Assembly: GCA_018656065.1 (NCBI GenBank)
Contig: JABHZY010000024.1
Location: forward strand, 224,970-288,969
Direction: 5' to 3'
DNA length: 64,000 bases
Source of the DNA: Candidatus Komeilibacteria bacterium
GTDB taxonomy: Bacteria > Patescibacteriota > Patescibacteriia > UBA1558 > GWA2-36-10
Part shown: piece by piece, positions 904 to 35,361 of the stretch
How positions within the stretch are numbered: position 1 is the stretch's first letter
Layout of the letters: every line of letters begins with the position of its first letter
Translations under genes and position numbers: made by a program
The notes under the pieces: generated by a model
The model's input: only the letters and a program-made list of their open reading frames with translations
What the model was told of the DNA's origin: nothing
The model's database searches: none

Positions 904-961
904 AAAAAACCGCCCATTCGATTTTACTAAGGACGGTAATAAAATAAAAATTATTTTTCTT
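904..961. repeat. 58-bp direct repeat copy A (terminator hairpin plus last codons of the Doc gene)
   Basis: 55/58 identical to 17610-17667. It contains ccgccc...ggacgg and the minus-strand coding end AAGAAAAATAA. Confidence 0.85.
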
Positions 962-1385
962 TAGTATAGTCTACCATATTAATACTAATAAAACTTTCTA
1001 TGGCTTTAACAACATCAACTTTCAACTTAGGAGGACTTTGGGCTACCCAAACGGCAAAATTATATAATTCTTGATTATCTACTTTTATCCATTTGTTATT
1101 AATAGATAAAAACACAAACAAAGTAGTAACTGCTATTCTCTTATTTCCATTTTGAAAAGGATGATTTTTTATCAATAGATAAAATAATATAGCTGCCTTA
1201 CCTTTCAAGCCAACATATAAAAACTTTTTATTAAATCTTTGAAAAGGCGTCTTCAGGCAACTTTCTAAAACATTTGGATATCTAGTTTCAAAGGGGGGAA
1301 TTGATTCATCCCATGTCATGGTGTCTATGGCTAACCTGTGGGATAAATATTCAATGATTTCTACTGTAATTTTTTTGACTTGCAT
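951..1385 (-). CDS. Fic/Doc family toxin (death-on-curing type)
   Basis: 144 aa with the HPFQNGNKR motif (HxFx[DN][AG]NKR of Doc/Fic). It starts 1 nt after the upstream small HTH gene. Confidence 0.85.
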   Translation of the reverse strand: MQVKKITVEIIEYLSHRLAIDTMTWDESIPPFETRYPNVLESCLKTPFQRFNKKFLYVGLKGKAAILFYLLIKNHPFQNGNKRIAVTTLFVFLSINNKWIKVDNQELYNFAVWVAQSPPKLKVDVVKAIESFISINMVDYTKEK

Positions 1386-1386
1386 C

Positions 1387-1647
1387 TTATTCTTCGCCCA
1401 AAAGTTTTAAAGCTTGGCCATATTCACTAACTACCATATCTACACTGCTATCAATCCTCTTTTTTAGCTTATCTGAAACTTCATCAGAGATAAGATCTAA
1501 GACGTCTTTTTTGTAGATAATATAATTTCTACCAGCTTTTTGAGCTTTAATCTGACCTTTTTTAACTTTGTTAAAAACAGCAATACGACTGATACCCAAA
1601 ATATCAGCTAATTCTTTTATAGATAATATATCCTTTGTTTTCTTCAT
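1387..1647 (-). CDS. HTH DNA-binding protein, probable antitoxin for Doc
   Basis: 86 aa. The N-terminal segment LSIKELADILGISRIAVFNKVKKGQI is excisionase/MerR-like HTH. It is adjacent to and co-oriented with the Doc gene. Confidence 0.75.
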   Translation of the reverse strand: MKKTKDILSIKELADILGISRIAVFNKVKKGQIKAQKAGRNYIIYKKDVLDLISDEVSDKLKKRIDSSVDMVVSEYGQALKLLGEE

Positions 1648-1655
1648 AAAATTGT

Positions 1656-1710
1656 GTTAACTTATGCTTTTATAGGTTAACATATGTTAACCTATATGTC
1701 AAGAGTTAAC
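1656..1710. promoter_or_regulatory. operator-like GTTAAC array with a 26-bp perfect palindrome
   Basis: GTTAAC occurs at 1656, 1676, 1686 and 1705. tataggttaacatatgttaacctata (1671-1696) is a perfect palindrome, 9-63 nt upstream of the antitoxin start. Confidence 0.6.
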
Positions 1711-1726
1711 ATAGATTACTATCCTC

Positions 1727-1780
1727 TCTTCGTCATACTCCTGTCCAGTAAAGATTGCTTGCACAACACTCGCTCACCCC
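1727..1780 (-). pseudogene. truncated Rhs core handle (5' stub of a second orphan cassette)
   Basis: 49/54 nt identical to 3871-3924. The minus strand reads SVVQAIFTGQEYDEE, then diverges (RIVIYVNS*) into the TA operator region. Confidence 0.7.
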
Positions 1781-1831
1781 AAATGCAACAGTATAAAAAT
1801 GGTTTAGAAAATGTCGCATTTTGTTCAACAA

Positions 1832-2506
1832 CTATTTTCTCTTTGGCTCAACAACTACTCCCTTCTGAGACCACATATCAAATATATAGTATATACCCGT
1901 AATATGTTCTTTTTCAAAATCAGGGTCAGTCTGTGCTTTTTGAATATTTTTCAAAAGCTGGTTGAGCATAATTTCTATCCCACTATTCACTATTTTTCTC
2001 AAGTGCTGCGGCCTGATACATATTTCTTTTGGATTTTTTTCTTTTCTTTCGTTATAAAACTCTTCATATTCTTCATTCGTCAATCCTTCACACATGACAG
2101 ATATTCCAGGAACGCCTATACCATAAAAATGAACGGCAGCGCTACGAAATTCATAAAGCTTGTGCTCATTAAGACGCTTCAAAAATTTATTATTTTTATA
2201 TTCTTTATTATCAGAACAAAATAAAAAATTTTTAGCAAATACTCTAAAATTTTTTCCCACACCATCAACTTCCTTGTCGGAATAAGATACTTTTTTTGTA
2301 TACTGATGCCAATAATTAGCTGCTAATTCAATAACAGTAAATATGCCTATCAATTGCATTTGTGTTGGAATAATCTCTTTATTATCACGAGTCTTATAAA
2401 ACAATTGATTTAAATCACCATTAGCGCGTGTCAAATGTTGAAGTACTAACTTCTCTCTAATATTATGATCTTCGATCATATTTTGTCTAAATTTTTTATG
2501 ATCCAT
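1832..2506 (-). CDS. hypothetical protein (224 aa) within the toxin locus
   Basis: Long minus-strand ORF with native AT-rich composition. I recognise no motif. Confidence 0.6.
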   Translation of the reverse strand: MDHKKFRQNMIEDHNIREKLVLQHLTRANGDLNQLFYKTRDNKEIIPTQMQLIGIFTVIELAANYWHQYTKKVSYSDKEVDGVGKNFRVFAKNFLFCSDNKEYKNNKFLKRLNEHKLYEFRSAAVHFYGIGVPGISVMCEGLTNEEYEEFYNERKEKNPKEICIRPQHLRKIVNSGIEIMLNQLLKNIQKAQTDPDFEKEHITGIYYIFDMWSQKGVVVEPKRK

Positions 2507-2556
2507 AAATTAATATGCTCACAGGCAACTCAAAAAGCCGCCGATGTAAATAGTAC

Positions 2557-2832
2557 CTACTTAGATACGTTTTCTAATTTATTCTTAAGCCAATCTACGA
2601 ATTCTTTATAACTTATATACCCATGTTCACGATCCTCTTTAGGTGGCTCAACTCCTGTGTATTCAAATTTCTCTTGTATCTCTGTAAAATAGTCGTGATC
2701 TTGTTCACTTAAATCTTCATCGGAAACTTTGGTTATATAACACGCATAAAAATTATCTTCAAACTGATTATAATCAAGTTTGCCATCAACTGCCTCTTGC
2801 AACGTATCTGATAAATATTTTTTATGATTCAT
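2557..2832 (-). CDS. small acidic protein, candidate (orphan) immunity protein
   Basis: 91 aa and acidic. Its ATG overlaps the stop of the upstream 92-aa gene (ATGAATCATAA), implying translational coupling. Confidence 0.55.
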   Translation of the reverse strand: MNHKKYLSDTLQEAVDGKLDYNQFEDNFYACYITKVSDEDLSEQDHDYFTEIQEKFEYTGVEPPKEDREHGYISYKEFVDWLKNKLENVSK

Positions 2833-3100
2833 TTTTTAAAGCATTAATAAATTTATTTGCTATAGAATCGTATTTATCTTTACCTTTGACTAATTCTTCA
2901 TTGAAGAATGAAACAAACACCTCGTGAATCCAATCTCTCAACTCTTCATTCCCAAGATTAACAATATCCTTTTCTAATATTTTCTCAATCTCTGGATCAT
3001 ATTCATTTAAAGATTCTGGGGTATCAGAATCTACAAGACCCAAAGGATCTTCTTCATTGATGATACTTTTTAATAACTCATAATTTTTAGATTTTTCCAT
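2822..3100 (-). CDS. small acidic protein, candidate immunity for the orphan toxin
   Basis: 92 aa, starting 5 nt after the orphan toxin stop. The DPLGL..PESLNEYDPEI motif resembles the DPIG..P.DEYD signature I recall in several immunity families. Confidence 0.6.
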   Translation of the reverse strand: MEKSKNYELLKSIINEEDPLGLVDSDTPESLNEYDPEIEKILEKDIVNLGNEELRDWIHEVFVSFFNEELVKGKDKYDSIANKFINALKNES

Positions 3101-3104
3101 ATTT

Positions 3105-3917
3105 CTATTTTAATAATTTAAACCTATCTGGAGAGCTCTTTGGACTTAAATTTCTAATAAAGTTCTCTGTTGATACTAATGCCTTTTGTGCTCTGTCTGT
3201 AACTATAGTAAATCCACCCCTTCCTCTTTCTCCAACTGTATGCAGTAAATTACCTGTTTTGGTATCAAGATACTTTGTTCCATTTTCTATAGCAGATGAA
3301 ATTTGTCCTGCACTCATGCCTCTTTTAGCAAACTGCTCCGCTGCATGTTTAGTTACCCTTAATCCAAACACTTTTTCCCCAGCTGTTAATAATGTTTTAC
3401 CAACAACCTTACCTTCTCCACCTGTACTAGCATCAAATGCTGCAAAACCAAACGCTAACATTCTAGTACCACCGCTTTGGTCTGGGTCAAAGACATCAGC
3501 AATATTATTAGCTATATCACCCATACTACGTGATACGAAACCAGAGACTTTATTAACAAATCCACCCTGACTACTCGTATAATCACCTGCTCTATTAAAG
3601 AAACTACCTATACTTCTTTGTCCACTTGCTAAATCTCGACCAAATGGACCAGCAAATTCTCCAGTATCATCAGTCATTACTACAGGATTGTTTATACTAT
3701 ATGCATAACTATTTAATTGCTGTGGATTTATAAGAACTTTATTTATATTACCATTTACAATACTTTTTAACTCCTCTGGATTATGTAATTTTAATATAGC
3801 GGGATCAATTGAAACAAATCGTCCTGTCTCATTATCCATATACCTAGCCCCAAAGTATTGAATATCCGTTTCTTCGTCATACTCCTGTCCAGTAAAGGTT
3901 GCTTGCACGACACTCAC
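3105..3917 (-). CDS. orphan Rhs core-tip plus C-terminal toxin cassette (DUF4258-like motif)
   Basis: The ORF opens right after a TGA and has only a GTG start. It begins VVQATFTGQEYDEETDIQYFGARYMDNETGRF..PQQLNSYAYSINNPV, homologous to the end of the main Rhs core. The tail has TKHAAEQFAKRGMSAGQISSAIENG, like the T.HA..R...RGIS motif of DUF4258. Confidence 0.75.
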   Translation of the reverse strand: MSVVQATFTGQEYDEETDIQYFGARYMDNETGRFVSIDPAILKLHNPEELKSIVNGNINKVLINPQQLNSYAYSINNPVVMTDDTGEFAGPFGRDLASGQRSIGSFFNRAGDYTSSQGGFVNKVSGFVSRSMGDIANNIADVFDPDQSGGTRMLAFGFAAFDASTGGEGKVVGKTLLTAGEKVFGLRVTKHAAEQFAKRGMSAGQISSAIENGTKYLDTKTGNLLHTVGERGRGGFTIVTDRAQKALVSTENFIRNLSPKSSPDRFKLLK

Positions 3918-3921
3918 TCCA

Positions 3922-3940
3922 CCCTTCGACTTCGCTCAGG
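3922..3940 (-). repeat. copy 1 of the CCTGAGCGAAGTCGAAGGG motif
   Basis: The minus strand reads cctgagcgaagtcgaaggg, ending 4 nt before GTG 3917. Other copies are at 49070-49089 (+) and 57944-57963 (-). Confidence 0.8.
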
Positions 3941-4054
3941 CTCTGCGAAATGGGACAAATGGGACACTATAAAAGGGATATTTCGTGTCTCATTTCTTCA
4001 ATATATAAAAGAGCTAATTTGACTCAATAAGAATTTTATAACTTAATATAATTA

Positions 4055-5347
4055 TTAACTAACATCATATATATTATAACCTAATATCTTATATTTATCA
4101 CTACCACAATACTCAAATAAAGTATCTTTAAAATTAGGTGGTATTTTTCTATACGAATTAATTAACACAAACTTTTTGGATCTACAATGTGATTTACAAA
4201 TATCAATAATATTATTATTTTCCTTATTAATTTTGATTACTTTGAAATGCTGTAATCCATAAAAGGGCCATGTATTATTAATACGCTCATCATAATATTC
4301 AGGCATCTTACCATCATCAAAAGCAAATAATTCAATCCAGCCCCTTCGTTTATTTATACCCATGAGTCCAAGTTTTTTAAAGAAATCAAAAGAATCTTTT
4401 TTAATACCATCATCAGATAACACAAATATAGACACATCTGGCACATTAACGGGTTCGTTGTTGGTTAAATAATCTTCTAAAAATTTTATTAATTCTTTTC
4501 TGCTTTCCTCTTTAGCAAAAAAGATTTTTGTTTTATATTTTGTATCAAGCTTTAATTCTTTTATGGTTCTACCCATAAAAGAATCTGTCGCCAATACATC
4601 AACGTATGGAAGATAACTAGATATTATGTCTATATCAGTCCCATCACTTACTTTAATAGGACGATTGTTATGGACTGTTAATAGATATGCCCACATACGA
4701 GCATAAATATAATATTGTGGTATTATGAAATCTTCAGAATCTATAAATTTATTTATAGATTCTGCATCTCCTTTAAATAACCAATTAATTTTATCAATAT
4801 TATATTGTTTAAATCTATCTCTTATAGCGCCTATTTCTAATTCCGTCTGTTTTTCAAAAGAAATATTTTTTTCTTTTAAATTTTTTTGAACTTGTTGTAA
4901 TTTTTGAGCTTCTTGCTCTCTTCCGTCTGTAAGTAATTGAAGATAAGAACTACTTCTTATATCAATGTCAAATTGTTCTAATATTTTATCTGGGTTATCT
5001 GTATATACAAATGACCATTCTATAGATTTTCTTTTAATACCTAAAAAAATTTCTCCATTTCTCACTATTTCAGAAGTTTCTAAAGTATCTTCATGGTGTA
5101 ATGATATTTGACCCATATAGCTTTGAAATTGTCCAATTCTATCAGTAAGTTTTCCCGCTAAACTTGATTCGATCTTATGAAAAAAAGATTTTGGTACGAT
5201 TATCTTTTCTTCCAAAAAACCTCTATGAATTAAATCAAAAAGTTTTTTATAATCTAAATTAACTTTGCTATTAATATCAACTTTAGCAATTTCACTAATA
5301 AAATTTTGATCTAAATAAATTATTAACTTTTTAGTTAACTTTCCCAT
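4055..5347 (-). CDS. hypothetical protein (430 aa)
   Basis: Long ORF between two terminator-like sites. The N-terminal IYLDQNFIS and the later DIDIISSYLPYVDVLATD are faintly PIN-like, which is a weak impression only. Confidence 0.6.
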   Translation of the reverse strand: MGKLTKKLIIYLDQNFISEIAKVDINSKVNLDYKKLFDLIHRGFLEEKIIVPKSFFHKIESSLAGKLTDRIGQFQSYMGQISLHHEDTLETSEIVRNGEIFLGIKRKSIEWSFVYTDNPDKILEQFDIDIRSSSYLQLLTDGREQEAQKLQQVQKNLKEKNISFEKQTELEIGAIRDRFKQYNIDKINWLFKGDAESINKFIDSEDFIIPQYYIYARMWAYLLTVHNNRPIKVSDGTDIDIISSYLPYVDVLATDSFMGRTIKELKLDTKYKTKIFFAKEESRKELIKFLEDYLTNNEPVNVPDVSIFVLSDDGIKKDSFDFFKKLGLMGINKRRGWIELFAFDDGKMPEYYDERINNTWPFYGLQHFKVIKINKENNNIIDICKSHCRSKKFVLINSYRKIPPNFKDTLFEYCGSDKYKILGYNIYDVS

Positions 5348-5378
5348 ATAAAATAGAGGTTATTTGGTAAAAGAAACC

Positions 5379-5405
5379 AAAAAGTCGTCTAAAAGACGAC
5401 TTTTT
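5379..5405 (-). terminator. bidirectional hairpin terminator after the Rhs-immunity pair
   Basis: gtcgtct/agacgac 7-bp stem with a 3-nt loop, flanked by A- and T-runs. Confidence 0.6.
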
Positions 5406-5411
5406 ATTCTA

Positions 5412-5717
5412 TTAATCTATTGCATACTGATTTTTTACTTTTAACCAAGTAAGTATTCCTTTTTCAGTCTTTTCGGGAAAATTCGGATTTTCCTGCAAAA
5501 TCATTTTTGCAAGTTCATCAAGTCCATAGTATTCTTCAAGAAAAGTGTAGCCAGTTTTAGTTAAGGTGCTTTCTCCAGATTCAAGCTCCCAAATAAAATC
5601 TAATAACTTTTTCTTGTCTAAAAAGTCAGCAACATAAGATTCATCATCTTTCTTGTAATTACAAACTCCTAATATTTTGCCCTCAAAATTTTTAACAATG
5701 CCTTCTTTTGTATTCAT
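5412..5717 (-). CDS. candidate cognate immunity protein of the main Rhs toxin
   Basis: 101 aa, starting 4 nt downstream of the Rhs stop on the same strand. No known motif. Confidence 0.6.
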   Translation of the reverse strand: MNTKEGIVKNFEGKILGVCNYKKDDESYVADFLDKKKLLDFIWELESGESTLTKTGYTFLEEYYGLDELAKMILQENPNFPEKTEKGILTWLKVKNQYAID

Positions 5718-5721
5718 ATAA

Positions 5722-8700
5722 TTATTTAATTTTACTAATTCTATCTAAGTAACTACTAATCTTATTAACATTTTCAACTTTATAAAAAGTCTTAATTTTA
5801 TTATTGGCATCTAATATAGCAGAAAAGTTATTATTAACATTATAATATACTTTATCCGCACCTTCTTTAAAAACATTTGTATAACCGCTTTGGACAAAAT
5901 CATTAGCTTTTTGATAATACTGACCAAGATTTTTAGCACCTATTTTATCACCCTGTTTCTCAAAATGTCCCACTAAATTTTTAGCACTATCAGCCACTCT
6001 TCCTGGACTCCAGCCTCTACCAGATTGTAAAGCTTTATCAGCCTGAGTCATGGCAGTACCACCTATCAAACCAACTTCTGTTAATCCCCAAGTAATAGCG
6101 GCAGACGACCCATAAGCAGCTAATCCACTACCTACACCAATTGCCAAACTAGATTTACCTGGATTATCCATAATCGCTTTAGCAGTATCACTATCATTAT
6201 ACAATTGATTTGCAGCTTGTCCAAGCTCTGTTTGAAAGCTTGACCATGATTGCCCATTACCAAATGTTGATATATTACCCCAAACAAATGCTTTCCACCA
6301 ATTACCATCAGGGTCTACAAATATAACTGGATTATTCTTAGAATATGAATAACTATTTAAAGCTTGAGGATCTGAAAGTATATTCTGTAATTCCTGCCCA
6401 GATATTTTCTTCAACTGATTACCATCGTGGAGCACCAACATTACTGGTTCCATTGCAGTAAATCGTCCTATCTCATTATCCATATACCTCGCACCAAAAT
6501 ACTGAAGTGAATTTTCTTCGTCATACTCATGCCCAGTAAAAGTGTAATCATTATCTAAATCTTGTATTGTACTCTCATAATTAATCTTACCAAAAGGCTT
6601 GTAATCTGACAATTCGGCTACAGCGCCTGTGGAATCTGTACGCAAAGAACTAGAGCCTAAATGATCACCAAGTATAAAATATGGATCATCACTTTCATTA
6701 ACTGTGGCTACTTTAATATTATTTACATTGATATGCGTCTTGGCTTGATTAGCTAAATTCTTTTCAAAGTAGCCATCTACATATTTATCTTCCTTAACTC
6801 TGCGAAGCTCCCAATTCCCCGCTCTTCTGCCAGCCGCCATCCGCACAGAATTATCACTGCCAACCATAGCAGCCTCTATCATGCATATTTCTTCAATATC
6901 AGGTGGAATCCAAACTAACTCTTCAGTATATTTAATAAATCGTTGATTATTGTGATCGTAATCATAGTAGGTATTATTTTCACTGGCTATATCATAAGTA
7001 CTATCTAGTCTAGATCTATGATCCCAAATAAATTTAGATATATTATTGGTCTTGGTATTACCTGCGTCATCGTAGGTAAATGTACGACCTGTTAAACTAG
7101 ACAATTGATGAGGATTATCATTATCATAATTCATAGTACCTAAGTCACTATTATAGATCATATTACCTACGGCATCATAATTATATACTTTAGAATAATT
7201 ATCTGCGGGATGTGAAATATAATTAACTGTAGAACTAGCTAGCCGATAAAGATCATCATAGTCATACCAAGTAGTCTTGGCTAAATCAGTACTAGAGCTG
7301 TCTGTAATCTGAGTGATATTACCCACAGCGTCATAAGTATAGTGGATATCTTGCAAGGTAGTAGTGCCATGGGTAGTATCTAAGTCAGTTAATCTAAAAT
7401 TCTCTTGAGGGTTATAAATATAATCAGTGATGACTCCATTTGATCTTTCTAGATGAGTCATCTGACCATTTTGGTTATACTGTATATTATCTACTAGTAC
7501 TACTGGCCCTGAACCTTTATCGAGACTAACAGAATCTACTTGGCCTATATTATTAAATCCATAGCTAACTACATGGCCATTTGGATAAGTGATGCTCTCT
7601 GCTTCACCATTTAAATTGTAATCAAAATTCATGACGAAATCTTCATTCTCAATGGTAGTTGTAGATGTTCTAAGATTGCCTAATATGTCATAATCATAGG
7701 CCCTGCGATTGTTATTGCCATAATAGGCGTGAGTAAGTTGACCTATGTCTCCATCTTCATCGTAGACATAAGATATTTTATTTACATTGTCTAACTTTTC
7801 ATATTCTACTCTATTGAGATCATCATAGACATAAGATATGTTGTCTCCTTTGAAACTAGTTTCTGTCTCTACATTACCATTTTTATCGTGAGTATAGTTA
7901 ATCTTCTCTGGAGTAGTGACTGTAGATTTATGAACCATATCCTGCCAATCTAGATTGTCTAGATCATCATAGTGAAAATTTCTAATATTGCCTTGCTCAT
8001 CTGTAATCTTTTTAAGTTTATTAGTCAAAGTATAATCATAGCTAGTAGTGTATACACTAGTGTCATTGTATTCTTTGACTTCTATTAAATTGCCGTGAGC
8101 GTCCTTAGTTAAATCTTTGATATTATTATTAGCATCTGTGATAGTAGTGGTAAATCCATCGTAATCATAACCCGTAGTACCCACTGGAGTGGTTTCTATC
8201 AGTACTCTGCCTAGAGCATCGTAAATATATGTCTTAGCTGGTTGACTTAAATTTGGCACTGAGTAATCTATAGCTGTAGTAATATACGGCAGTGATTGAC
8301 GATCTACTCTACCTTGAGAATCATAGCTAATATCCACTGCGGTGTATTCACTAGTATTATCTGTCTGAGATTTGCTTTGTATTACTCTATCTAGACCATC
8401 ATAGTATTCACGAGATGTTACAAAATTTGTAGAGTCAAAATAATTCTTGGTTTCTGTATGCCTTGGTAAAACAGTGTCTTGATAACTCACCTCTTGTTTT
8501 AATACCAAACTACCAAAATTATCTGGATCTGAAATTTTTGTTTCTGTTAATCTACTAAAAGCATCAAACTTGTTTACAGTCATAGCTCCATTAGGAGTAG
8601 TGCTAGTAGCTATTTGGCCGTTTAGTAGGTTGTAGTCCGTGTAACTAGTATTGCCTAAGGGATCAGTGCTAGAAGCTGGATACATATTGTAGCTATCATA

Positions 8701-11700
8701 ACTTAGAGTAGTAGTAGCAAACTTTGGATCAGATTGCTCATATACCAAACCATATGAATCAAAATTTCTATTTAATTCCACATCATCAGTGATATAATCT
8801 TCTTTAGTTAAATTTATTTTATCTACTTGGCCATGAGCTTGATTGTTGTAGTAAAGATCTTGAGCTTTACTATCTACTGTATCTGAAATAGTCTTTGTTT
8901 TTGGCGCAGCTAAAATATGTTTAGTGGTATTTTCAGCATAATCATAATCTGTATCTTTTTCGTCGCCTGTTAGCTGATTAGTTACTTCCCCTGTCCCAAT
9001 ATTTATAACCACTTCTCCTAAATTATTTTCTACTAGAAGATTACCTGTACTGGTACTATATTGATACTGAGAAGCTGTGGACTTAGTAGTACCTACAAAA
9101 TTAGTATTTGCCTTCTGAGTATTGTAGACAAATTTATTATCATCTCCTTGATCATATTCTTCCCATTTATATAGCTGCTGTTTTAATAGATCATCAGTGC
9201 TAGCATCGTAGACTTCCTGACGATATTGCCTGCCTATTTTGTAATAGCTGTCATTATATTCACCTTGACTAGAATTGGAATCATCACCTTGGTGATAATA
9301 ATTTACAGTTTTGGTATCACTTTCTGTTTTCTCTACTTTTCCAAAGCCGGCAAATTTTTTATCATATGGATTATTAGAATCATAATAATATTGCCCATCA
9401 CTATATTCATAATCAATATCAGAAATATTTCCTAAACCATCATCTATAGTAATTTGACTGACAGTCTGTACTACAAATGGAAGCTCTGGATTTAATAACC
9501 CACTAGTGCTAGTAGCCTGAGCTGAAGATTGATATTCTATACCTATCTCTGACCCCTCTTCAGTTATTATATTATTTACTATATCTTCACTATCACCTGA
9601 ATTATTAAAATATATCTTATCATTTCCAAAATCTACTAAATCTACTAAACCATCAGCATCCATATCAATAGTAAATATGCCATAACGCTCTGTTATAAAT
9701 AAATCTGGTTGTACAGCAAAATATACGGGAAGTTCATAATTAATATCTATATCAAAAGATCCGTCGCCATTATTTATATATACTCCATTACCATTTAGCA
9801 GAACACTATCAATTGATTTTAAAATATCCACTAAACCATCGCCGTTTACATCTGCTAAACGTCCACCTTTATCAAGATAAGTAGGTGATCCATAACCAGG
9901 TATTTGATTTAAACTAAAATCACCATTATTAATATAAAAAGAGCTATATTGGACCATATCACCTAAACCATCTTGATTTACATCAGATAAAAATCTATTA
10001 TTTGTACTTATTTGAAATGGAAAATCATGCTCCATATCACGTTGCCAACCATTAGGTCCCTGATTAATATATATCTCACGCCAATCATGAGTTAAATTTG
10101 TATAAACTACATCTAATAATGAATCGCCATTAACATCTACATATACGAGAGCTGAAGAAGAGTCTAAGGGCGTATCAGTAGGAAAACCTACTGCAGGCGC
10201 TGGCCAAGTACTAGGACTCCAAGTACAATCACCATTATTAGTATAAAATGTACTCCAAGTGGATATATCATTTAGACCATCGCCGTTTACATCTAAAGTA
10301 AGATAACCACGTTCGTATGTTCTGGCTGGTATAGGAGGTAAGCAGTTTGGATCATCAGTCCAAGTGCCATCACCATTGTTTATATATGTTTTTCGAATAT
10401 TTGGATTAGCGTCAATATGATAAAAAATATCTGGATAATTATCTCCATTTAAATCTGCCAAACTTAATACCCTATAATCTACCCACGTAGTTGATGGCAA
10501 CATAAAATCACTCTGCTCTGCCCAACCCACAGCTCCATTAGTGTAATCAAACTCCGTAGCTGGCATAGTAATTTCATCACCAGAAATAGCAGTCATAGCT
10601 ACTTGCCCCGGAGCTTCATCCTGATATTGAGCTGAGGATTTATAATTTATATCTATTTGAGAACCTCCTGAAATATTAATAGTATTCATTACATCTACTT
10701 CTTGTTCTAAGTCAAATAAATGAATTCTTCCCCACATACCATCTACCCAATCCACAAGTCCATCGCCATTCATATCAGACACTGTGTATCTAGCTGAATA
10801 ATCATAAACGCTAGAAAGTGAGACTGGGATAACATATGTATTATCTTCTGTCCAGGTGCCATCGCCATTATTCAAAAATATTCCGTTTGTTAAATTATAC
10901 AGATCTTTTCGTACAACATCACTTAAACCATCACCGTTTATATCCATTATTTTCCCAACTTGCACATAGCCAGATCCAGCAAAGTTATGCCATATTTCTA
11001 ATGCCTCATAATTTGAATCCAAATACCATCCTGTCCCATCAGCATTATTTATGTATACACCATTTTGATCCATAAAATCTACAAAACCATCTCCATTTAT
11101 GTCCATTGGCATTGCAGATGGATCACCTGCTCCAATTGGAAAATTTATTTCATAATTATGATCTCTAACGAACTCAGAACCATTGTTTATATATACCTCT
11201 GACTGCCAATTAAAACTAGAATTGAGCCAAGCTCTAATTTTATCAACTTTTCCGTCATTATTTATATCTATATAATTATAATAAGCAACATCAAACCATG
11301 TATTATCTCCATAACCATCTTCTCTGTTCCAGTTCAAATTTCCGTCATTTAAAAATATTCCATTATAATCACTATAGCCAGAAATAAAATCAATAAGGCC
11401 GTCTCCATTAAAATCAGCTAGTTGAAATATTTCAGTGAGCCAAGTTTGAGCAGATGTAATAGGGACATTTGGGTTTAAATGCTCTTCCCAAGAGCCATCG
11501 CCATTATTTAAGTATATAGCGAAATCATCTTCGTCGTTACTACCATTATGAATTAAGCATAAAAAATCAGATAAAGAATCGCCATTTAAATCTGCTATGG
11601 TGATTGATTCTGACCCTCCATAACAGTTACTTGGATAGCTGTAATTTGATAAAGTCCATGTTTTTTCTGGAATATTATAATCAAAGCTATCTTCTGGCAT

Positions 11701-12813
11701 AGCCATCATTACACCACTATTAGGATCACGAGCGCCTTCTACAATATTATCTAAAAGTGAACGATTGTCATTATCTCCGGTAATATAATTCAAATGATAT
11801 CTTTTTTCCCATTGATTATTAACACTTATTTCTATTTCATTAATACGATAATCATTATACACATTAAAACCAGTGGCAAAACTATTTAAATTATCATTCC
11901 TGGCTTCTCTTAAAAACTCTACTTCAAAAATACCGTCAGTAGTACTATGTCCAGTATAAAATATTTTATAAGGATAAATCTGACCATTATCTTTGTAGTA
12001 TTCATAACGGATAAAATTATCATTAGTATCACGTATCTCTTCCAACATCCATTTAAAAACTTTAGTCGGATCACCCAAATCATCCTGACGAGAATTTATT
12101 GTAGCACCAAAAGTGTATACTGTACCTTGCTTATCTTTGACTATCCATGTATCAGTACTAGATGCATATTCATAATCAAAAAATTCCCCATTGTCTACTT
12201 TTGAAGAGTGTCCACCATTTGCATCTATAGACACTAATTCGCCAGTCAATGAAGAATTAAAATATGGATCTGAATAAATTTTGTCTATACCTTTTTTATT
12301 TATCCTTTCTATATAAGGAATATTAATGCTCCAGCCATAGCCAAACAAATTTTGATTGTCGCTATTTTGATTATTGTATGTCAACTGTAAGTCTGGTTGC
12401 AAACCATTTCTGCCAACAGGCACTTCTATAGGGTAAGCATAGTTAAATGCTCCTGTATTGCTATCTGTGTCAATATTCAATTTATCAACCAAAGATTTTA
12501 TTTCATCTTTTTGAATATAGGGCTCTGGATCATCAGTGGTAGCCATTGGCGCTTCTGGAATTTCTCCTTCTGATTCTATTGGTATAATCTCTGCTGGCTC
12601 CTCTACAATAACTGGCGTGGGTTTTAATTCCTCTGGCATTGGCAAAGCTAGAACCTGAGTTTCCTCTACCTGTGTTGCTGGTAGGCTAGGCACCTCTAAT
12701 GATTCTACTTCTCTAGCTAAAGATATTGTTGGTGCTAGAGAAGAAAAAACAAAACTAAAAACCAAAAAATATATTTTTAGTTTTAAAATTTTTGAATGCT
12801 TGTTAAATTTCAT
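5722..12813 (-). CDS. secreted Rhs family polymorphic toxin (SpvB/TcB-like N-terminus, 2x FG-GAP block, YD-repeat shell, Rhs core, variable CT)
   Basis: 2363 aa with a signal peptide. It has an SpvB-like FNYAYPIEVPVGRNGLQPDLQLTY..GYGWSINIPYIER and 12 DxNGDGxxD motifs. It carries many YD repeats (YDALGRV, YDDLNRV, YDAVGNI, YDDLYRL). The core reads GDHLGSSS..YKPFG..TFTGHEYDEENSLQYFGARYMD..NNPVIFVDPDGN, followed by a 192-aa tail (5725-6300). Confidence 0.92.
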   Translation of the reverse strand: MKFNKHSKILKLKIYFLVFSFVFSSLAPTISLAREVESLEVPSLPATQVEETQVLALPMPEELKPTPVIVEEPAEIIPIESEGEIPEAPMATTDDPEPYIQKDEIKSLVDKLNIDTDSNTGAFNYAYPIEVPVGRNGLQPDLQLTYNNQNSDNQNLFGYGWSINIPYIERINKKGIDKIYSDPYFNSSLTGELVSIDANGGHSSKVDNGEFFDYEYASSTDTWIVKDKQGTVYTFGATINSRQDDLGDPTKVFKWMLEEIRDTNDNFIRYEYYKDNGQIYPYKIFYTGHSTTDGIFEVEFLREARNDNLNSFATGFNVYNDYRINEIEISVNNQWEKRYHLNYITGDNDNRSLLDNIVEGARDPNSGVMMAMPEDSFDYNIPEKTWTLSNYSYPSNCYGGSESITIADLNGDSLSDFLCLIHNGSNDEDDFAIYLNNGDGSWEEHLNPNVPITSAQTWLTEIFQLADFNGDGLIDFISGYSDYNGIFLNDGNLNWNREDGYGDNTWFDVAYYNYIDINNDGKVDKIRAWLNSSFNWQSEVYINNGSEFVRDHNYEINFPIGAGDPSAMPMDINGDGFVDFMDQNGVYINNADGTGWYLDSNYEALEIWHNFAGSGYVQVGKIMDINGDGLSDVVRKDLYNLTNGIFLNNGDGTWTEDNTYVIPVSLSSVYDYSARYTVSDMNGDGLVDWVDGMWGRIHLFDLEQEVDVMNTINISGGSQIDINYKSSAQYQDEAPGQVAMTAISGDEITMPATEFDYTNGAVGWAEQSDFMLPSTTWVDYRVLSLADLNGDNYPDIFYHIDANPNIRKTYINNGDGTWTDDPNCLPPIPARTYERGYLTLDVNGDGLNDISTWSTFYTNNGDCTWSPSTWPAPAVGFPTDTPLDSSSALVYVDVNGDSLLDVVYTNLTHDWREIYINQGPNGWQRDMEHDFPFQISTNNRFLSDVNQDGLGDMVQYSSFYINNGDFSLNQIPGYGSPTYLDKGGRLADVNGDGLVDILKSIDSVLLNGNGVYINNGDGSFDIDINYELPVYFAVQPDLFITERYGIFTIDMDADGLVDLVDFGNDKIYFNNSGDSEDIVNNIITEEGSEIGIEYQSSAQATSTSGLLNPELPFVVQTVSQITIDDGLGNISDIDYEYSDGQYYYDSNNPYDKKFAGFGKVEKTESDTKTVNYYHQGDDSNSSQGEYNDSYYKIGRQYRQEVYDASTDDLLKQQLYKWEEYDQGDDNKFVYNTQKANTNFVGTTKSTASQYQYSTSTGNLLVENNLGEVVINIGTGEVTNQLTGDEKDTDYDYAENTTKHILAAPKTKTISDTVDSKAQDLYYNNQAHGQVDKINLTKEDYITDDVELNRNFDSYGLVYEQSDPKFATTTLSYDSYNMYPASSTDPLGNTSYTDYNLLNGQIATSTTPNGAMTVNKFDAFSRLTETKISDPDNFGSLVLKQEVSYQDTVLPRHTETKNYFDSTNFVTSREYYDGLDRVIQSKSQTDNTSEYTAVDISYDSQGRVDRQSLPYITTAIDYSVPNLSQPAKTYIYDALGRVLIETTPVGTTGYDYDGFTTTITDANNNIKDLTKDAHGNLIEVKEYNDTSVYTTSYDYTLTNKLKKITDEQGNIRNFHYDDLDNLDWQDMVHKSTVTTPEKINYTHDKNGNVETETSFKGDNISYVYDDLNRVEYEKLDNVNKISYVYDEDGDIGQLTHAYYGNNNRRAYDYDILGNLRTSTTTIENEDFVMNFDYNLNGEAESITYPNGHVVSYGFNNIGQVDSVSLDKGSGPVVLVDNIQYNQNGQMTHLERSNGVITDYIYNPQENFRLTDLDTTHGTTTLQDIHYTYDAVGNITQITDSSSTDLAKTTWYDYDDLYRLASSTVNYISHPADNYSKVYNYDAVGNMIYNSDLGTMNYDNDNPHQLSSLTGRTFTYDDAGNTKTNNISKFIWDHRSRLDSTYDIASENNTYYDYDHNNQRFIKYTEELVWIPPDIEEICMIEAAMVGSDNSVRMAAGRRAGNWELRRVKEDKYVDGYFEKNLANQAKTHINVNNIKVATVNESDDPYFILGDHLGSSSLRTDSTGAVAELSDYKPFGKINYESTIQDLDNDYTFTGHEYDEENSLQYFGARYMDNEIGRFTAMEPVMLVLHDGNQLKKISGQELQNILSDPQALNSYSYSKNNPVIFVDPDGNWWKAFVWGNISTFGNGQSWSSFQTELGQAANQLYNDSDTAKAIMDNPGKSSLAIGVGSGLAAYGSSAAITWGLTEVGLIGGTAMTQADKALQSGRGWSPGRVADSAKNLVGHFEKQGDKIGAKNLGQYYQKANDFVQSGYTNVFKEGADKVYYNVNNNFSAILDANNKIKTFYKVENVNKISSYLDRISKIK

Positions 12814-12843
12814 ATGATTATTTAAGTTAATTGTTTGTAATAT

Positions 12844-13530
12844 TTAATTTATAAATTTAAAACTTTTTACCATTTCTTCATCATAAGTAATTGTACCGGC
12901 TGAATTACCCCAAAAGACAGCTTCCTGACCTATAAGCCAAGCTACAACTTTATTTTTAACTGGATAATATTTCATTACCGTCCAGCCATTAATAAGACAT
13001 TCTGATTCATCCAAGTCTTTGCCATCCCAAGCTGTATAAATGTCATAAACGCCTTCTTGTAAAGTAAGCTTCTTTTCACCTAAATTACATTTCCCATCAT
13101 AGTTAACATAATATTCTTGAATAAATTTATTTAATTCTTCGTCATTGTTAATGCCTTCTTTTACTATAATTTTCCATGAATAATCACCTATTGTATCTAG
13201 AAGCTCAAAAGAATTTTCAACTCTCTCACATTTTCCAGATTCCTTATTAATATCAAAAAAATATTCATAAGAAATATATACTTCATTGCTACTATCAAAT
13301 ATCTTCATTGGAATCATTTTATTTTTTTCTAAATCACAACTATTAGCTGAAGTTATTATTTCTCTAGGGTATTTAATCTCAAATCCCAATTCATCATTTT
13401 TATATGTTTTCCATTGATTTTCTAAAACAATTAATTGAATTTCTTGATCTTTAATACTAAAAAAAATAATCAAAGTAGTTAAGGCAGCTAAGAGTAAAAT
13501 TATTAATATTATTTTATTACTATGATTCAT
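12844..13530 (-). CDS. membrane-anchored exported protein, candidate immunity for the CHAP toxin
   Basis: 228 aa with an N-terminal TM anchor (IILIILLLAALTTLIIFF) and several Cys residues. It lies directly downstream of the Rhs-core-CHAP gene. Confidence 0.55.
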   Translation of the reverse strand: MNHSNKIILIILLLAALTTLIIFFSIKDQEIQLIVLENQWKTYKNDELGFEIKYPREIITSANSCDLEKNKMIPMKIFDSSNEVYISYEYFFDINKESGKCERVENSFELLDTIGDYSWKIIVKEGINNDEELNKFIQEYYVNYDGKCNLGEKKLTLQEGVYDIYTAWDGKDLDESECLINGWTVMKYYPVKNKVVAWLIGQEAVFWGNSAGTITYDEEMVKSFKFIN

Positions 13531-13541
13531 ATATAAAAAAT

Positions 13542-14663
13542 TTAAAATATGCTGTTAAAAAAACTCTTTGTGCTATTCCAAGCTCTTTGAAAAAATGATG
13601 CTCTAGGCGCTAAACTTGGCGTAGCATAATTATTACTCATTGTATTACTATTATTTTTATGCACTGGACTAAGCCAACCAGCCATAGGAGTTGTTTTATT
13701 TTTCATAATTGAATAACCGTCACCTGTCTTATTAATATTATAAGTACGTAAAGCTTTCTGACTAGCATTTTGATCCATAATTTCAACATAACCTGTATTT
13801 GTGGTGTTATCAAAATTTGCTTCTGTGACAACCATCACATGACCATAAGTCCCTTGTGTCCAAATTAACAAATCCCCTTCTCCTGGTAAATTGAACCCCT
13901 TGCCGTTTCTATGCTGTACAAAATTATATGATGATCCTGCAGCATCTAAATTTCTATTTATACTATCAATATTACTCCACATACCCTTAGGATCTCCTAC
14001 TACGCCCATGTTATTTATTCCGTAAGTATTAGACATATACCGCTTAGCATATTCAACACAACTATTATTCATTCTAAAACTACCAATTCCATTATAATAT
14101 GCATCTACTCCATTAAATTGCCCCATATTATCACCAAGTTTCCAACCTCCTTCTGGAATGTCATTGAAAGTAGCGCTTGATAACCCTAAAGGATCAATTA
14201 AAGAAATTGGATTATTTCTTGCATAACTATAACTATTTAATTGCTGGGGATCTGACAAAAATTTAGCTGGTTGAATTAATAGTAATGGGTCAATACTAGC
14301 AAATCTACCCAAATGATTATCATAATATCGATTAACAAAGTACTGAAGTTTATTTTCTTCATCTTGCTCTTTACCCGAAAATTTATAATCATTATTTATA
14401 GTTGAACTAGCATAAACCAACTGACCAAAATCATTATAGTCATTCTGTTCTACTATAGTACCATCCTTATTAGTGACTATAGTAGGAGATCCTAAATGAT
14501 CATTAAGATTAAAATAAATTTTTTCATCTTCTATAGTGGCTAATTTTTGATCTCCCAAAAATATGTGCATCTTAGTATCAGTTGCTTGTGCTGACCAAGG
14601 AAATATTAGTATCAAGGAACATAGCATAGTAATTATGCTCTCAAAATTTCTTTTCTTCTTCAT
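13542..14663 (-). CDS. secreted core-only Rhs protein with C-terminal CHAP amidase/peptidase domain
   Basis: 373 aa with a signal peptide. The Rhs core reads NDHLGSPT..YNDFG..YKFSGKEQDEENKLQYF..RFASIDP..NNPISLIDPLGL. The CHAP-like part has Cys (NNSCVEYAKRY), His (YGHVMVVTE) and IMDQN. Confidence 0.8.
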   Translation of the reverse strand: MKKKRNFESIITMLCSLILIFPWSAQATDTKMHIFLGDQKLATIEDEKIYFNLNDHLGSPTIVTNKDGTIVEQNDYNDFGQLVYASSTINNDYKFSGKEQDEENKLQYFVNRYYDNHLGRFASIDPLLLIQPAKFLSDPQQLNSYSYARNNPISLIDPLGLSSATFNDIPEGGWKLGDNMGQFNGVDAYYNGIGSFRMNNSCVEYAKRYMSNTYGINNMGVVGDPKGMWSNIDSINRNLDAAGSSYNFVQHRNGKGFNLPGEGDLLIWTQGTYGHVMVVTEANFDNTTNTGYVEIMDQNASQKALRTYNINKTGDGYSIMKNKTTPMAGWLSPVHKNNSNTMSNNYATPSLAPRASFFQRAWNSTKSFFNSIF

Positions 14664-14713
14664 ATTTGCAAACTAATTTTATTAGCTTGCCTGTTTTTAT
14701 TTATATTTTCTAA

Positions 14714-14887
14714 CTAACTCACAATACTACTTTTCTTCTCAAAAATGTTTAATCTTTTAAACGCCCAATAGAATAAATAAAAAACCCAGCCTATGCAAGC
14801 CAGGAATGCTGATACAAAAAATACAAGCACTAGGGCAACTACCCAACGTATATCTATTTTATTAAATTGTATGATTTCTTGAAGCAT
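14714..14887 (-). CDS. possible small membrane protein (57 aa, below the ORF-track cutoff)
   Basis: My own translation is MLQEIIQFNKIDIRWVVALVLVFFVSAFLACIGWVFYLFYWAFKRLNIFEKKSSIVS*. GAAGG lies upstream of the ATG, and there is a long hydrophobic core. Confidence 0.35.
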   Translation of the reverse strand: MLQEIIQFNKIDIRWVVALVLVFFVSAFLACIGWVFYLFYWAFKRLNIFEKKSSIVS

Positions 14888-14902
14888 AACCTTCTCAAAA
14901 TA

Positions 14903-15211
14903 TTATCCAGAGCCTAAATCTGATTTATTTTTCACTCGTTTTTTATATTTATCTAATGTTTTATATAAAATTTCTTCCATGTCTATATCAAAATAATTTG
15001 CTAAAACAATTAAAGAGTAAAAAACATCTCCTAATTCATTTTTTAAATTATCAGTTGATCTAAATTTCGATTTACCATAAGAAGTTGATAATAATATCTC
15101 TTTAGATAATTCGCCTACTTCTGACATTAAATCTACAACTCTATGTTCTACTGATAAATCTAGTTTATTTTCTTCACAAAAAATTTTAATGTTATCTTGT
15201 AATTTTTTCAT
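14903..15211 (-). CDS. MazG-like nucleotide pyrophosphohydrolase
   Basis: 102 aa with EVGELSKE and ELGDVFYSL (ExxE...ExxD), typical of small MazG-family proteins. Confidence 0.75.
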   Translation of the reverse strand: MKKLQDNIKIFCEENKLDLSVEHRVVDLMSEVGELSKEILLSTSYGKSKFRSTDNLKNELGDVFYSLIVLANYFDIDMEEILYKTLDKYKKRVKNKSDLGSG

Positions 15212-15216
15212 AATTT

Positions 15217-16485
15217 TTACTTTTTTAAATATTTAATGTTATCTTGAATTTTTTTAAAAGCCAATATATATTGATCTATAATATTTTTATCCCTATCCCA
15301 ATTAGAAAAAGTTGGTAGAGATAAAGCTCGTTTTTGTATATCAATCGCATTAGGGTAATTATTTAACTTATTTATTTTTTTAGCTTTCCTGTTATTAAAC
15401 ATTAAATCTGGAATATTTTTGTACAAAGGTTGATTGGCTAAAATAGCTCCAGATGGAGCGCTGATATGCATCCCTTCTGCGCGCAATGCTTCTACTAATT
15501 TATCTTTATCTAAATCATACAATTTTTCTTTAATATACAATGGTTTAAAACCATACCATGCCCCTCGATCTACATGTTCATCTGTATATATATTTTCTAT
15601 ATAATCTATTTCTTTTAAACCTTCATTAAGATAATTGAGACACCTGTGTCTATTTTTCTTATGTTTTTCATAATTCATCAAAGAATGTTTGGCTACGATA
15701 GCATTAAAAGGTGATATTCTTAATTTTAAACCAAAGCCAGTTTGCCAATACTCATTATATTTAGAATCTTTTACCTCTTCTTTACTCCTATCTCTATAAT
15801 GACCTAATAACGTGGCTCGATTATAATATTTTTCATTGTTAGTAACTAGTATACCTCCTTCACCAGCAAAAATCATTTTTTGAGCCTGCAAGGAAAAAAT
15901 TGCCACATCACCAAATGTACCACACATCTTACCTTTATATCTACTACCATGAGCATGAGAACAATCTTCTAAAACGAGCAAACTATGCTCTTTAGCTATT
16001 TTCATAATTTTATCCATATCTGCTGGATGACCCCACTGATGAACAACTGTTATTACTTTTGTTTTTTTATTAATAAATTTTTCTATATTTTCCACTTCAA
16101 TACATCTAGTTTCTTTATTAATATCTACCAAAATGACATTACCCTTTAAAAAATATACTGGGCTCAATGCGGCATGATATGTTAAAGCTGGTCCCATGAC
16201 TTCATCATCCTCTTCTATACCCATGGCAAAATAAGCAGCCAATAAAGCTGAGGTGCCAGAATTGAATGACACACAATATTTTATTTTATTATCTAAAAAA
16301 TTTAAAAATAAATCCTCCAGTTCTTTTATTGGCCCTGTTTTGCCTTTGATGCTTATATCAATATTTCTTTGAGCTTTGATTTCCTCCAATTCATTATCAT
16401 CAGCTTTTGGAGGCCATACTTTATGTGGCCCCCCTATGTTTATTAAAGGCTCACCGCCTAATAATGCTAATTTATTTTTTATCAT
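15217..16485 (-). CDS. DegT/DnrJ/EryC1/StrS-family sugar aminotransferase
   Basis: 422 aa with GTSALLAAYFAMG and FSLQAQKMIFAGEGGILV (PLP-Lys context). Confidence 0.85.
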   Translation of the reverse strand: MIKNKLALLGGEPLINIGGPHKVWPPKADDNELEEIKAQRNIDISIKGKTGPIKELEDLFLNFLDNKIKYCVSFNSGTSALLAAYFAMGIEEDDEVMGPALTYHAALSPVYFLKGNVILVDINKETRCIEVENIEKFINKKTKVITVVHQWGHPADMDKIMKIAKEHSLLVLEDCSHAHGSRYKGKMCGTFGDVAIFSLQAQKMIFAGEGGILVTNNEKYYNRATLLGHYRDRSKEEVKDSKYNEYWQTGFGLKLRISPFNAIVAKHSLMNYEKHKKNRHRCLNYLNEGLKEIDYIENIYTDEHVDRGAWYGFKPLYIKEKLYDLDKDKLVEALRAEGMHISAPSGAILANQPLYKNIPDLMFNNRKAKKINKLNNYPNAIDIQKRALSLPTFSNWDRDKNIIDQYILAFKKIQDNIKYLKK

Positions 16486-16486
16486 T

Positions 16487-17434
16487 TTATATTTTAATAA
16501 ATTGATTATTATACTGTACTGACTTTATGCCGGCATACAACATCCTCATAGATTTATATGCTAATAAATCTATATATTTTTTATTACTTGTAATATTCTT
16601 GAAATCTTTGATTTGTTCTGTATATGGACATACAATATTATTATTAATAACATTATGTTGTAAAACAAAACCTTTGTTATCATATAAAAAAATATCTTTG
16701 TCTTCTATTAAAATAGACCCTTGTTTGCCATGTATAAAAAAAGATTCCTGTTTTTTACTATAAGCTGATGATGTTAAGATTCTACCCATAGATCCATTAT
16801 TAAAATATATCGTTGCTAAATCTATGTTATCTACATTAACATTCTCAATATTGTTAATTGTTTTCATCACTACAGATATAGTCTTTGGATTGTCAAAAAA
16901 CCAATTCATAAGAAAACAAGCGTGCCATCCCAGACCATACCAACTACCGCCACCACTTTTGTCATCACAATACCAAGAATAAGTTTTGTCGTTGATAGTA
17001 AATTTATAATCAATCAAATCAACTTCTCCAATACTAGGAAGCCAATCTTTGGCTATAATATAACTTTGTTTAAATAATCTTTGTTGGGCTATTTTTAAAA
17101 TACATTTATTTTCTTTGGCTAACTCTAATAATTTATCTGCCTCATCTATACTAAGATTCATTGGTTTTTCTTTTAACACATGTACTCCATTTTTGATACA
17201 AAAACTAGAAATATCAAAATGCGTATCATTTGTTGTAGCTATAATGACAGCATCTGGCGACAGCTCTCTTATTGCTTTTTGATAATCATTGTAAAAAGGT
17301 TTGTCTATTTTATTAACATTTTTAAAATCGCAAACTCCCACTATTTGTAGCAAATTATCATCTTCTAATTTTTTTGCTGCTAAAAAGTGTTTATATCCTT
17401 GTCTACCTAAACCTATTATTAATAATTTAAACAT
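16487..17434 (-). CDS. Gfo/Idh/MocA-family oxidoreductase
   Basis: 315 aa with an N-terminal Rossmann LIIGLGRQGYKH and a VLKEKP motif. Confidence 0.8.
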   Translation of the reverse strand: MFKLLIIGLGRQGYKHFLAAKKLEDDNLLQIVGVCDFKNVNKIDKPFYNDYQKAIRELSPDAVIIATTNDTHFDISSFCIKNGVHVLKEKPMNLSIDEADKLLELAKENKCILKIAQQRLFKQSYIIAKDWLPSIGEVDLIDYKFTINDKTYSWYCDDKSGGGSWYGLGWHACFLMNWFFDNPKTISVVMKTINNIENVNVDNIDLATIYFNNGSMGRILTSSAYSKKQESFFIHGKQGSILIEDKDIFLYDNKGFVLQHNVINNNIVCPYTEQIKDFKNITSNKKYIDLLAYKSMRMLYAGIKSVQYNNQFIKI

Positions 17435-17510
17435 ATATGACTAAACTAACTTAACCCCTTTTTTAATATCTATATATCTTATTCTAAAAAAATTTATTTG
17501 AGAGGACATT

Positions 17511-17543
17511 TTTATAAGCCGTCGCTAGATTTATAGCCGTCTT
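17511..17543. promoter_or_regulatory. direct repeat TTTATA(A)GCCGTC x2
   Basis: AGCCGTC occurs at 17517 and 17535, 83-107 nt upstream of the oxidoreductase start. A similar pair lies at 27921-27950. Confidence 0.35.
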
Positions 17544-17609
17544 ATACTTACACATTAAATATAGCTGGAAAAAAATATACTGTCAATACTCCCCTATTTT
17601 TCTAAAACA

Positions 17610-17667
17610 AAAAAACCGCCCATTAGTTTTTACTAAGGGCGGTAATAAAATAAAAATTATTTTTCTT
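17610..17667 (-). terminator. rho-independent terminator of the histidine kinase gene; also 58-bp direct repeat copy B
   Basis: The minus strand reads taa..ccgccc-15 nt-gggcgg-ttttttt. It is 55/58 identical to 904-961. Confidence 0.85.
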
Positions 17668-35286: not shown

Positions 35287-35324
35287 GCCCTACTCCTCCG
35301 GGAGTACGGGCGGCTACTTTTTTT
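35287..35324 (+). terminator. rho-independent terminator of the GC-rich islet gene
   Basis: gccctactcc/ggagta(c)gggc stem with a tccg loop. A T-run lies at 35318-24. Confidence 0.6.
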
Positions 35325-35333
35325 ATACAAAAC

Positions 35334-35361
35334 AAAAAAACCACCCGTCAGGGTGGTTTTT
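35334..35361 (-). terminator. tsf terminator (bidirectional hairpin)
   Basis: aaaaaaa-ccaccc-gtca-gggtgg-ttttt. Confidence 0.8.

Follow-up and report, generated by a model that had tools for sequence, protein, structure and literature searches.

The window analyzed here is a 64,000-nucleotide (nt) stretch of contig JABHZY010000024.1 from Candidatus Komeilibacteria bacterium. It contains a pair of 58-nt direct repeats, copy A (904-961) and copy B (17610-17667), which bracket a 16.7-kb block of genes that an earlier note on this DNA had read as an inserted island. Alignment confirmed the repeat pair claimed there: the two copies are identical at 55 of 58 positions, their longest identical run is 28 bp, and a looser similarity reaches 71 nt (891-961 and 17597-17667, 89%). 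Within the window, a degenerate pattern of the 58-mer (three mismatches or fewer) occurred at these two sites only, with 0 sites expected from 100 shuffles. Each copy comprises the last 8 coding nt and the TAA stop codon of a minus-strand gene (..EK*), followed on that strand by a hairpin and a T-run. In copy A this gene encodes a Doc toxin; in copy B it encodes a 946-aa 7TM-GAF histidine kinase (HK; 17657-20497, minus strand, assigned with Pfam), whose native end is ..PAYKEEAEEK*.

Both hairpins are G+C-rich, lie directly 3' of the stop codon on the sense strand, and run into a tract of U6-7, as in intrinsic terminators. Copy B forms a strong hairpin with a 12-bp extended stem (-21 kcal/mol, z = -4.7), and copy A forms a weakened one (CCGUCC-15-GGGCGG, -11 kcal/mol). 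All three differences between the copies weaken copy A: one turns a G-C pair into a G-U pair and two remove inner-stem pairs. The stop-region and hairpin makeup given in the earlier note was borne out, except that the RNA stem of copy A is CCGUCC/GGGCGG with a G-U pair, not ccgccc/gggcgg. Judged by these features, the two 58-mers appear to be two copies of one Rho-independent terminator, and they are predicted to end transcription of HK and of the helix-turn-helix (HTH)-Doc unit, respectively. What sets them apart from ordinary intrinsic terminators is that two near-identical copies stand behind unrelated genes, with the repeat extending 11 nt into both coding regions.

The source genome, a Komeilibacteria-like member of the Patescibacteria, was assembled identically in many marine metagenomes and in the metagenome-assembled genome GCA_018651305.1, and the sequences L001, L007 and L008 are 100% identical to the window. 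Both repeat junctions were the same in every independent assembly read (16 contigs from the HK side, 24 from the Doc side and 11 from the side of a hydrolase gene left of copy A, in overlapping sets).

Two copies might be expected by chance, 16.7 kb apart, if the 58-mer belonged to a dispersed family of portable terminators of the MITE-like or REP-like kind. The 58-mer is intergenic and contains a hairpin, and a third terminator at 35322-35360 shares its A-run and the CCRCCC stem start. However, both copies include coding nucleotides, and no further copy was found in the 64-kb window plus ~10 kb to its left; nor did local alignment reveal a third one in the window and the fetched loci of relatives (L017-L043). 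In the metagenome collection, the hairpin 27-mer matched the two known junctions and no other site, and viral contigs gave no match at all. The terminator at 35322-35360 was rejected as a third copy, as its stem and loop differ and it looks like a generic terminator. Dispersal of the 58-mer across the genome, which the earlier note had named as a finding that would speak against an island, was thus not seen in the window, the ~10 kb to its left or the collection scans, and we regard this explanation as extremely unlikely.

Genes between the repeats

Pfam and NCBIfam matches confirmed the gene content that had been listed for the block, all of it on the minus strand. Inward from copy B lie genes for a GFO/IDH/MocA oxidoreductase (16487-17434), a DegT aminotransferase (15217-16485) and a MazG-like protein (14903-15211), each assigned with Pfam. 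They are followed by an Rhs toxin array (1727-14663), recognized from Pfam matches, internal repeats and orthologous arrays at the same locus in L020, L038 and L041. The array consists of a 373-aa Rhs-CHAP gene (13542-14663; Pfam), o228 (12844-13530), the main Rhs gene of 2363 aa (5722-12813; SpvB, FG-GAP and RHS_repeat matches), o101 (5412-5717), o430 (4055-5347), an orphan Rhs tip of 270 aa (3105-3917; Pfam), small open reading frames (ORFs; 1832-3100) and an Rhs-core remnant (1727-1780). In the 373-aa and 270-aa ORFs, core-end motifs are followed by CHAP or DUF4258 tips, and the core-end repeats D1, D3 and D9 are present.

The array therefore has the large YD-repeat shell, the variable C-terminal tip and the downstream orphan tips of an Rhs/YD-repeat array. 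It resembles the Rhs orphan-tip loci that arise by C-terminal displacement (PMC2935791) in having a main Rhs gene, an immunity candidate, orphan fragments (3105-3917 and 1727-1780) and core-end repeats, as well as tips that differ between relatives, with an RNase tip and Barstar in L038. It differs from them in its occurrence in Patescibacteria, with sugar-modification genes before the array and an HTH-Doc pair at its end.

This pair consists of an 86-aa HTH_17 antitoxin (1387-1647; PF12728, TIGR01764) and the Doc/Fic toxin (951-1385; PF02661, TIGR01550), with the HTH stop and the Doc start 1 nt apart. A toxin with an upstream, coupled, small DNA-binding partner is the arrangement of a type II toxin-antitoxin (TA) module of the Doc/Fic class, and toxicity is predicted. 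The partner is not of the Phd type but an HTH_17 protein that scores above the cut-off of the TIGR01764 excisionase-family domain. In the Patescibacteria relatives examined, HTH_17 and Doc form a conserved two-gene module. The core remnant at 1727-1780, which is 91% identical over 54 nt to 3871-3924, is kept in L038 (9526-9658). As this remnant of an Rhs core end lies directly upstream of HTH-Doc, the TA pair stands where an orphan toxin/immunity module would be placed, at the array tail.

The interval between HK and PGK in relatives

The genes (o121-)PGK-enolase-iPGM stand no more than a few hundred bases behind HK in L018, L021-L026, L028 and the P0121 contig. Among full-length HK proteins, P0121 is the most similar (68% identity), and synteny extends to both sides of it; the empty-locus relatives (L018 and the P0121 contig) stand at genus-level distance and have a different terminator. 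Since HK directly precedes o121-PGK in several relatives, everything between HK and o121 is variable. Different cargo fills the interval in L017, L020, L041 and L043, with an Rhs array behind HK in L020 and quite different genes behind it in L017. L038 and L039 carry Rhs-CHAP, an immunity candidate, a 2261-aa Rhs with an RNase tip and Barstar, HTH-Doc, a small ORF and o123-PGK, and L040 has an Rhs fragment and other genes followed by HTH-Doc-o121-PGK. Compared across these loci, the HK-to-PGK interval is hypervariable and, in this comparative sense, accessory.

On the copy B side, the HK orthologues P0125, P0129 and P0156 share the native ..PAYKEEAEEK end, and the last 24 nt of HK are identical in L043, where the hairpin that follows is different. 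Directly downstream of copy B lies a promoter, TTGACA-17-TATATT (17558-17586, minus strand), which matches the consensus at 11 of 12 positions, is the second-best match in the first 18 kb of the window and is kept in L041 and L043. A conserved 5' leader or operator (17500-17556, minus strand; ..GTATAAGACGGCTATAAATCTAGCGACGGCTTATAAAAATGTCC) follows and is collinear with L041 15066-15122. Terminator, promoter and leader together align with L041 at 129 of 168 nt (E = 1e-26), with the stems conserved and the loop diverged, a further likeness to intrinsic terminators. The positional equivalent of copy B in L043 is the HK end with another hairpin, followed by the same promoter flank and leader, and this leader and promoter flank are 86% identical over 95 nt (L043 7472-7566). 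Because the promoter and leader just inside copy B are collinear with the DNA downstream of HK in L041 and L043, they are not foreign to HK. Copy B is thus part of an ancestral punctuation, composed of the HK terminator, a strong sigma-70-type promoter and a conserved leader.

The GFO-DegT-MazG genes are absent from L041 and L043, and the same leader precedes other genes there, which makes these three genes a separate module. The strong promoter and conserved leader (17500-17586; L041 15040-15122; L043 7472-7566) head different downstream genes in three genomes. The leader (~55 nt) contains the direct repeat GACGGCT(T)AT twice, nested in an inverted repeat TATAAG/CTTATA. An Rfam search of window positions 1-22000 (E <= 1) gave no match, the conserved leader included, so it is not a known riboswitch. 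A structured RNA was also rejected, as the fold was no more stable than those of shuffles (z = +1.3); instead of acting as RNA, the leader may serve as an operator site. In L043, a ~130-nt insertion relative to the window and L041 (7300-7470) interrupts the promoter region and leaves the TTGAC -35 motif in two copies.

On the copy A side, an HTH-Doc pair orthologous to that of the window (80-84% aa identity) lies directly upstream of o121-PGK in L038, L039 and L040. The identities to L038 are 80% for HTH and 84% for Doc at the protein level, and 80% for Doc at the nucleotide level. In L038 and L040 the pair directly precedes the small ORF or o121-PGK, with neither the 58-mer nor the hydrolase gene. 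The copy A hairpin is absent downstream of the orthologous Doc in L038, L040 and L041, and the window and L038 cease to be homologous 7 nt past the Doc stop. Doc orthologues natively end in Lys-rich sequence (..CAGAAAAAATAA in L038), so that ~8-9 of the 11 shared coding nt would have pre-existed as microhomology. Copies A and B are 95% identical, compared with 77% to L041 across the collinear terminator-promoter-leader stretch (lower within the hairpin). As this exceeds both the L041 value and the identity of Doc to L038, the duplication is younger than those splits. Copy A is thus a recent, lineage-specific second copy placed right behind the Doc stop codon.

The two sides of copy A also differ in their closest relatives. 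Doc and HTH are nearest to L038, but o121, enolase and the iPGMs are nearer to the empty-locus L018 (69%, 82.5% and 80-85%, respectively, vs 52%, 77% and 76-83% to L038), which amounts to mosaic ancestry across the junction. PGK (L008 12150-13313) has the reverse ranking of the flanking o121, enolase and iPGM, with 76% aa identity to L038 vs 58% to L018, suggesting that these lineages have recombined at the scale of genes within the glycolytic operon. In three genomes, a small, relatively GC-rich ORF (~25-45 aa) lies on the opposite strand immediately upstream of the conserved o121 promoter (L008 11400-11600, to the left of the window; L038 10500-10660; L018 12930-13040). Its product is hydrophobic in L008 and L038, and no sequence similarity was detectable between these two.

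The hydrolase cassette and the island model

Left of copy A, and outside the repeats, lies a plus-strand cassette at approximately 8-898. It consists of a promoter (17-45), an AGGAGG motif, a gene for a 250-aa alpha/beta hydrolase (107-859) and its own terminator (857-898). The promoter matches the consensus TTGACA-17-TATAAT at 12 of 12 positions and has an upstream TG. The cassette has a GC content of 52%, against ~30% elsewhere, and its tetranucleotide correlation to the core is r = 0.21. Among 5.8 billion sequences, only two other clusters of the hydrolase protein exist (3 in all). The whole promoter-to-terminator unit recurs in L044-L047 at 74-76% nt identity (for example, L044 1076-1940 and L047 381-1204), where it lies tail-to-tail with uvrC, as it does with Doc here, and keeps ~50% GC in genomes of 30-35% GC. 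In L044-L047, the last uvrC codons fall inside the cassette terminator, and the cassette lies within ~10 nt of the convergent stop. With the extent of the cassette set by homology to these units, copy A starts ~5 nt past its end. The cassette encodes no recombinase, and cassette plus copy A had no match in plasmid and phage collections. It is the only compositionally foreign DNA at this locus, and it lies outside the bracketed block.

Direct repeats that restore the stop codon at a gene 3' end are classic island geometry. The 58-mers had accordingly been taken for attL and attR of a 16.7-kb island integrated at the HK 3' end or terminator; its integrase would have been lost or would act in trans, HTH-Doc would serve as a stabilizer, and the HTH protein might even be excisionase-like. 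As in integrase islands, the repeats bracket accessory genes, one copy restores the end of a core gene and a TA module lies at one edge; the HK-PGK interval is empty in several relatives, and the HTH protein exceeds the excisionase-family cut-off mentioned above. In relatives, however, this HTH protein is the conserved operon partner of Doc, a toxin family with 5899 members. No integrase or recombinase was found among the block ORFs (Pfam, NCBIfam), most of the ORFs that reach 120 aa in the first ~55.7 kb of the window, or the 10 kb to its left, where PGK, enolase, iPGM, BacA and similar genes lie. This absence, which the earlier note had reported, thus extends 10 kb to the left and 46 kb to the right. 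Integron-type attC core motifs (RYYYAAC / GTTRRRY) were present on neither strand around either copy, and no IntI was found. Nor was there a convincing dif-like site: the best internal 11-6-11 arrangement had 7 of 11 matches and was the terminator stem, and similarity to the dif sites of E. coli and B. subtilis, which may differ from that of this phylum, was 14-15 of 28.

The comparison with relatives also speaks against att sites. The flank just inside copy B is collinear with the DNA downstream of HK in L041 and L043, and L038 and L040 carry the Rhs/HTH-Doc part in place with no repeat behind Doc, so that the block and both repeats do not go together. L041 and L043 join the same terminator-promoter-leader end to different cargo and lack the sugar genes, and the toxin tips differ in L038, so there is no discrete unit. 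Composition points the same way: the tetranucleotide correlation to the core is 0.92-0.97 inside the block and 0.79-0.84 in the Rhs gene body, which means that the block is host-like apart from the latter, and the atypical segment lies outside the repeats rather than between them. The empty site that an island would predict was sought as well. HK stands directly before PGK in several relatives, but an HK-58mer-hydrolase junction occurred in no contig of this species read. Neither empty-site nor circular junctions, nor any other excision product, were seen in ~50 contigs read (HK, Doc and hydrolase look-ups) and one metagenome scan. We therefore consider the island model largely refuted already and very unlikely to be correct. 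Of the earlier claim of an accessory block, the accessory nature of the interval stands, as does the position of the junction at the HK 3' end, but the discrete island does not: the 16.7-kb block appears instead to be a mosaic accessory region, parts of which are common to relatives at this locus, and not a self-mobile island. The 28-bp identical run between the copies could nevertheless permit rare RecA-mediated loss of the block.

A related idea starts from the cassette. The 58-mer, or 3'-end hairpins in general, might be landing sites for recombinase-less cassettes in Patescibacteria. One and the same hairpin would then have taken up both the block and the hydrolase unit, and the latter would be a mobile cassette in its own right, running from promoter to terminator and perhaps moved by a recombinase acting in trans. 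We find this idea very improbable.

Origin of the second copy

The explanation that we tentatively favor, and rate somewhat short of an even chance, is that two haplotypes of a recombination-prone locus were joined, and that the repeat arose from this join at microhomology in two gene ends, in which case the 58-mers are not att sites of a recombinase. The first haplotype would have been HK-T-promoter-...Rhs array...-HTH-Doc, where T is the HK terminator. The second would have been a block-less locus with the hydrolase tail-to-tail against that terminator (HK-T-<hydrolase-<sORF-o121-PGK, sORF being the small ORF). One side would have been anchored by ordinary homologous recombination. The other join would have been illegitimate, falling within the 8-11-nt microhomology (A)AGAAAAATAA native to the Lys/Glu-rich ends of Doc and HK (AAGAAAAATAA at the join). 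The resulting chromosome would have kept both alleles of the HK terminator, with the three differences reflecting allelic divergence, later decay of copy A, or both. In this way a single event would explain the contiguity of copy A and the cassette, and the shift in closest relative across the junction, from L038 for Doc and HTH to L018 for o121, enolase and the iPGMs, fits such a join. The fallback offered in the earlier note, a product of homologous recombination, hence remains viable.

The proposed mechanism is homology-facilitated illegitimate recombination, reportedly a model of de Vries and Wackernagel. In that process, a homologous anchor combined with a microhomology join would yield the structure seen here, including a short duplication with allelic differences; here the event is inferred, with neither the donor nor the recipient haplotype recovered. 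The term itself is used in PMC6382021.

Several observations weigh against a join of two haplotypes. The parental HK-T-hydrolase haplotype was not found in the 16 HK-, 24 Doc- and 11 hydrolase-bearing contigs (overlapping sets) or in a metagenome pattern scan. All assemblies of the species were identical over the two ~20-kb stretches compared, with no within-species variation. The apparent mosaic ancestry rests on few proteins and on relatives placed in no known species tree, and L038 was read without its HK side and L043 without its PGK side. Microhomology of this kind also arises easily by chance in A/T-rich Lys-codon sequence. Finally, an identical structure would result if the terminator had been copied within the genome and the cassette had been inserted in a separate event afterwards.

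This last scenario is the main rival. A nascent strand at the Doc end may have switched template at AAAAATAA to the HK end and copied ~50-60 nt of terminator, or short-patch gene conversion may have had the same outcome; the hydrolase cassette would have been inserted later and independently, tail-to-tail beyond the new terminator. It would produce the same structure, and the absence of copy A from L038 and L040 agrees with it. The position of the cassette within ~10 nt of a convergent stop in L044-L047 means that adjacency to 3' ends or terminators may be an insertion preference. Likewise, that all three differences degrade copy A would be expected if this copy were redundant, with the convergent hydrolase terminator as its backup. 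On the other hand, two separate events within ~5 nt of each other are needed, the shift in closest relative across the junction is left unexplained, and no other templated terminator duplications were found in the window. We therefore see such an ectopic copy as possible but rather unlikely.

Genomic islands, that is, variable, horizontally exchanged regions, are common in the small genomes of Patescibacteria (PMC12455944), and both these islands and Rhs orphan-tip arrays have already been described (PMC12455944, PMC2935791). The islands in that study were predicted by composition, whereas here composition is atypical in the flanking hydrolase cassette alone, the block itself being host-like. 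We see in this locus no more than what recombination ordinarily produces at a variable site; its sole mildly intriguing item is the GC-rich hydrolase cassette beside copy A. Clean direct repeats at a gene 3' end can frame accessory genes without being att sites; here, comparison with relatives identifies copy B as the ancestral terminator and copy A as a recent duplicate of it. In this small Patescibacteria genome, the locus illustrates a recombination hot spot between HK and a glycolytic operon, with exchange of Rhs toxins, TA modules and sugar genes.

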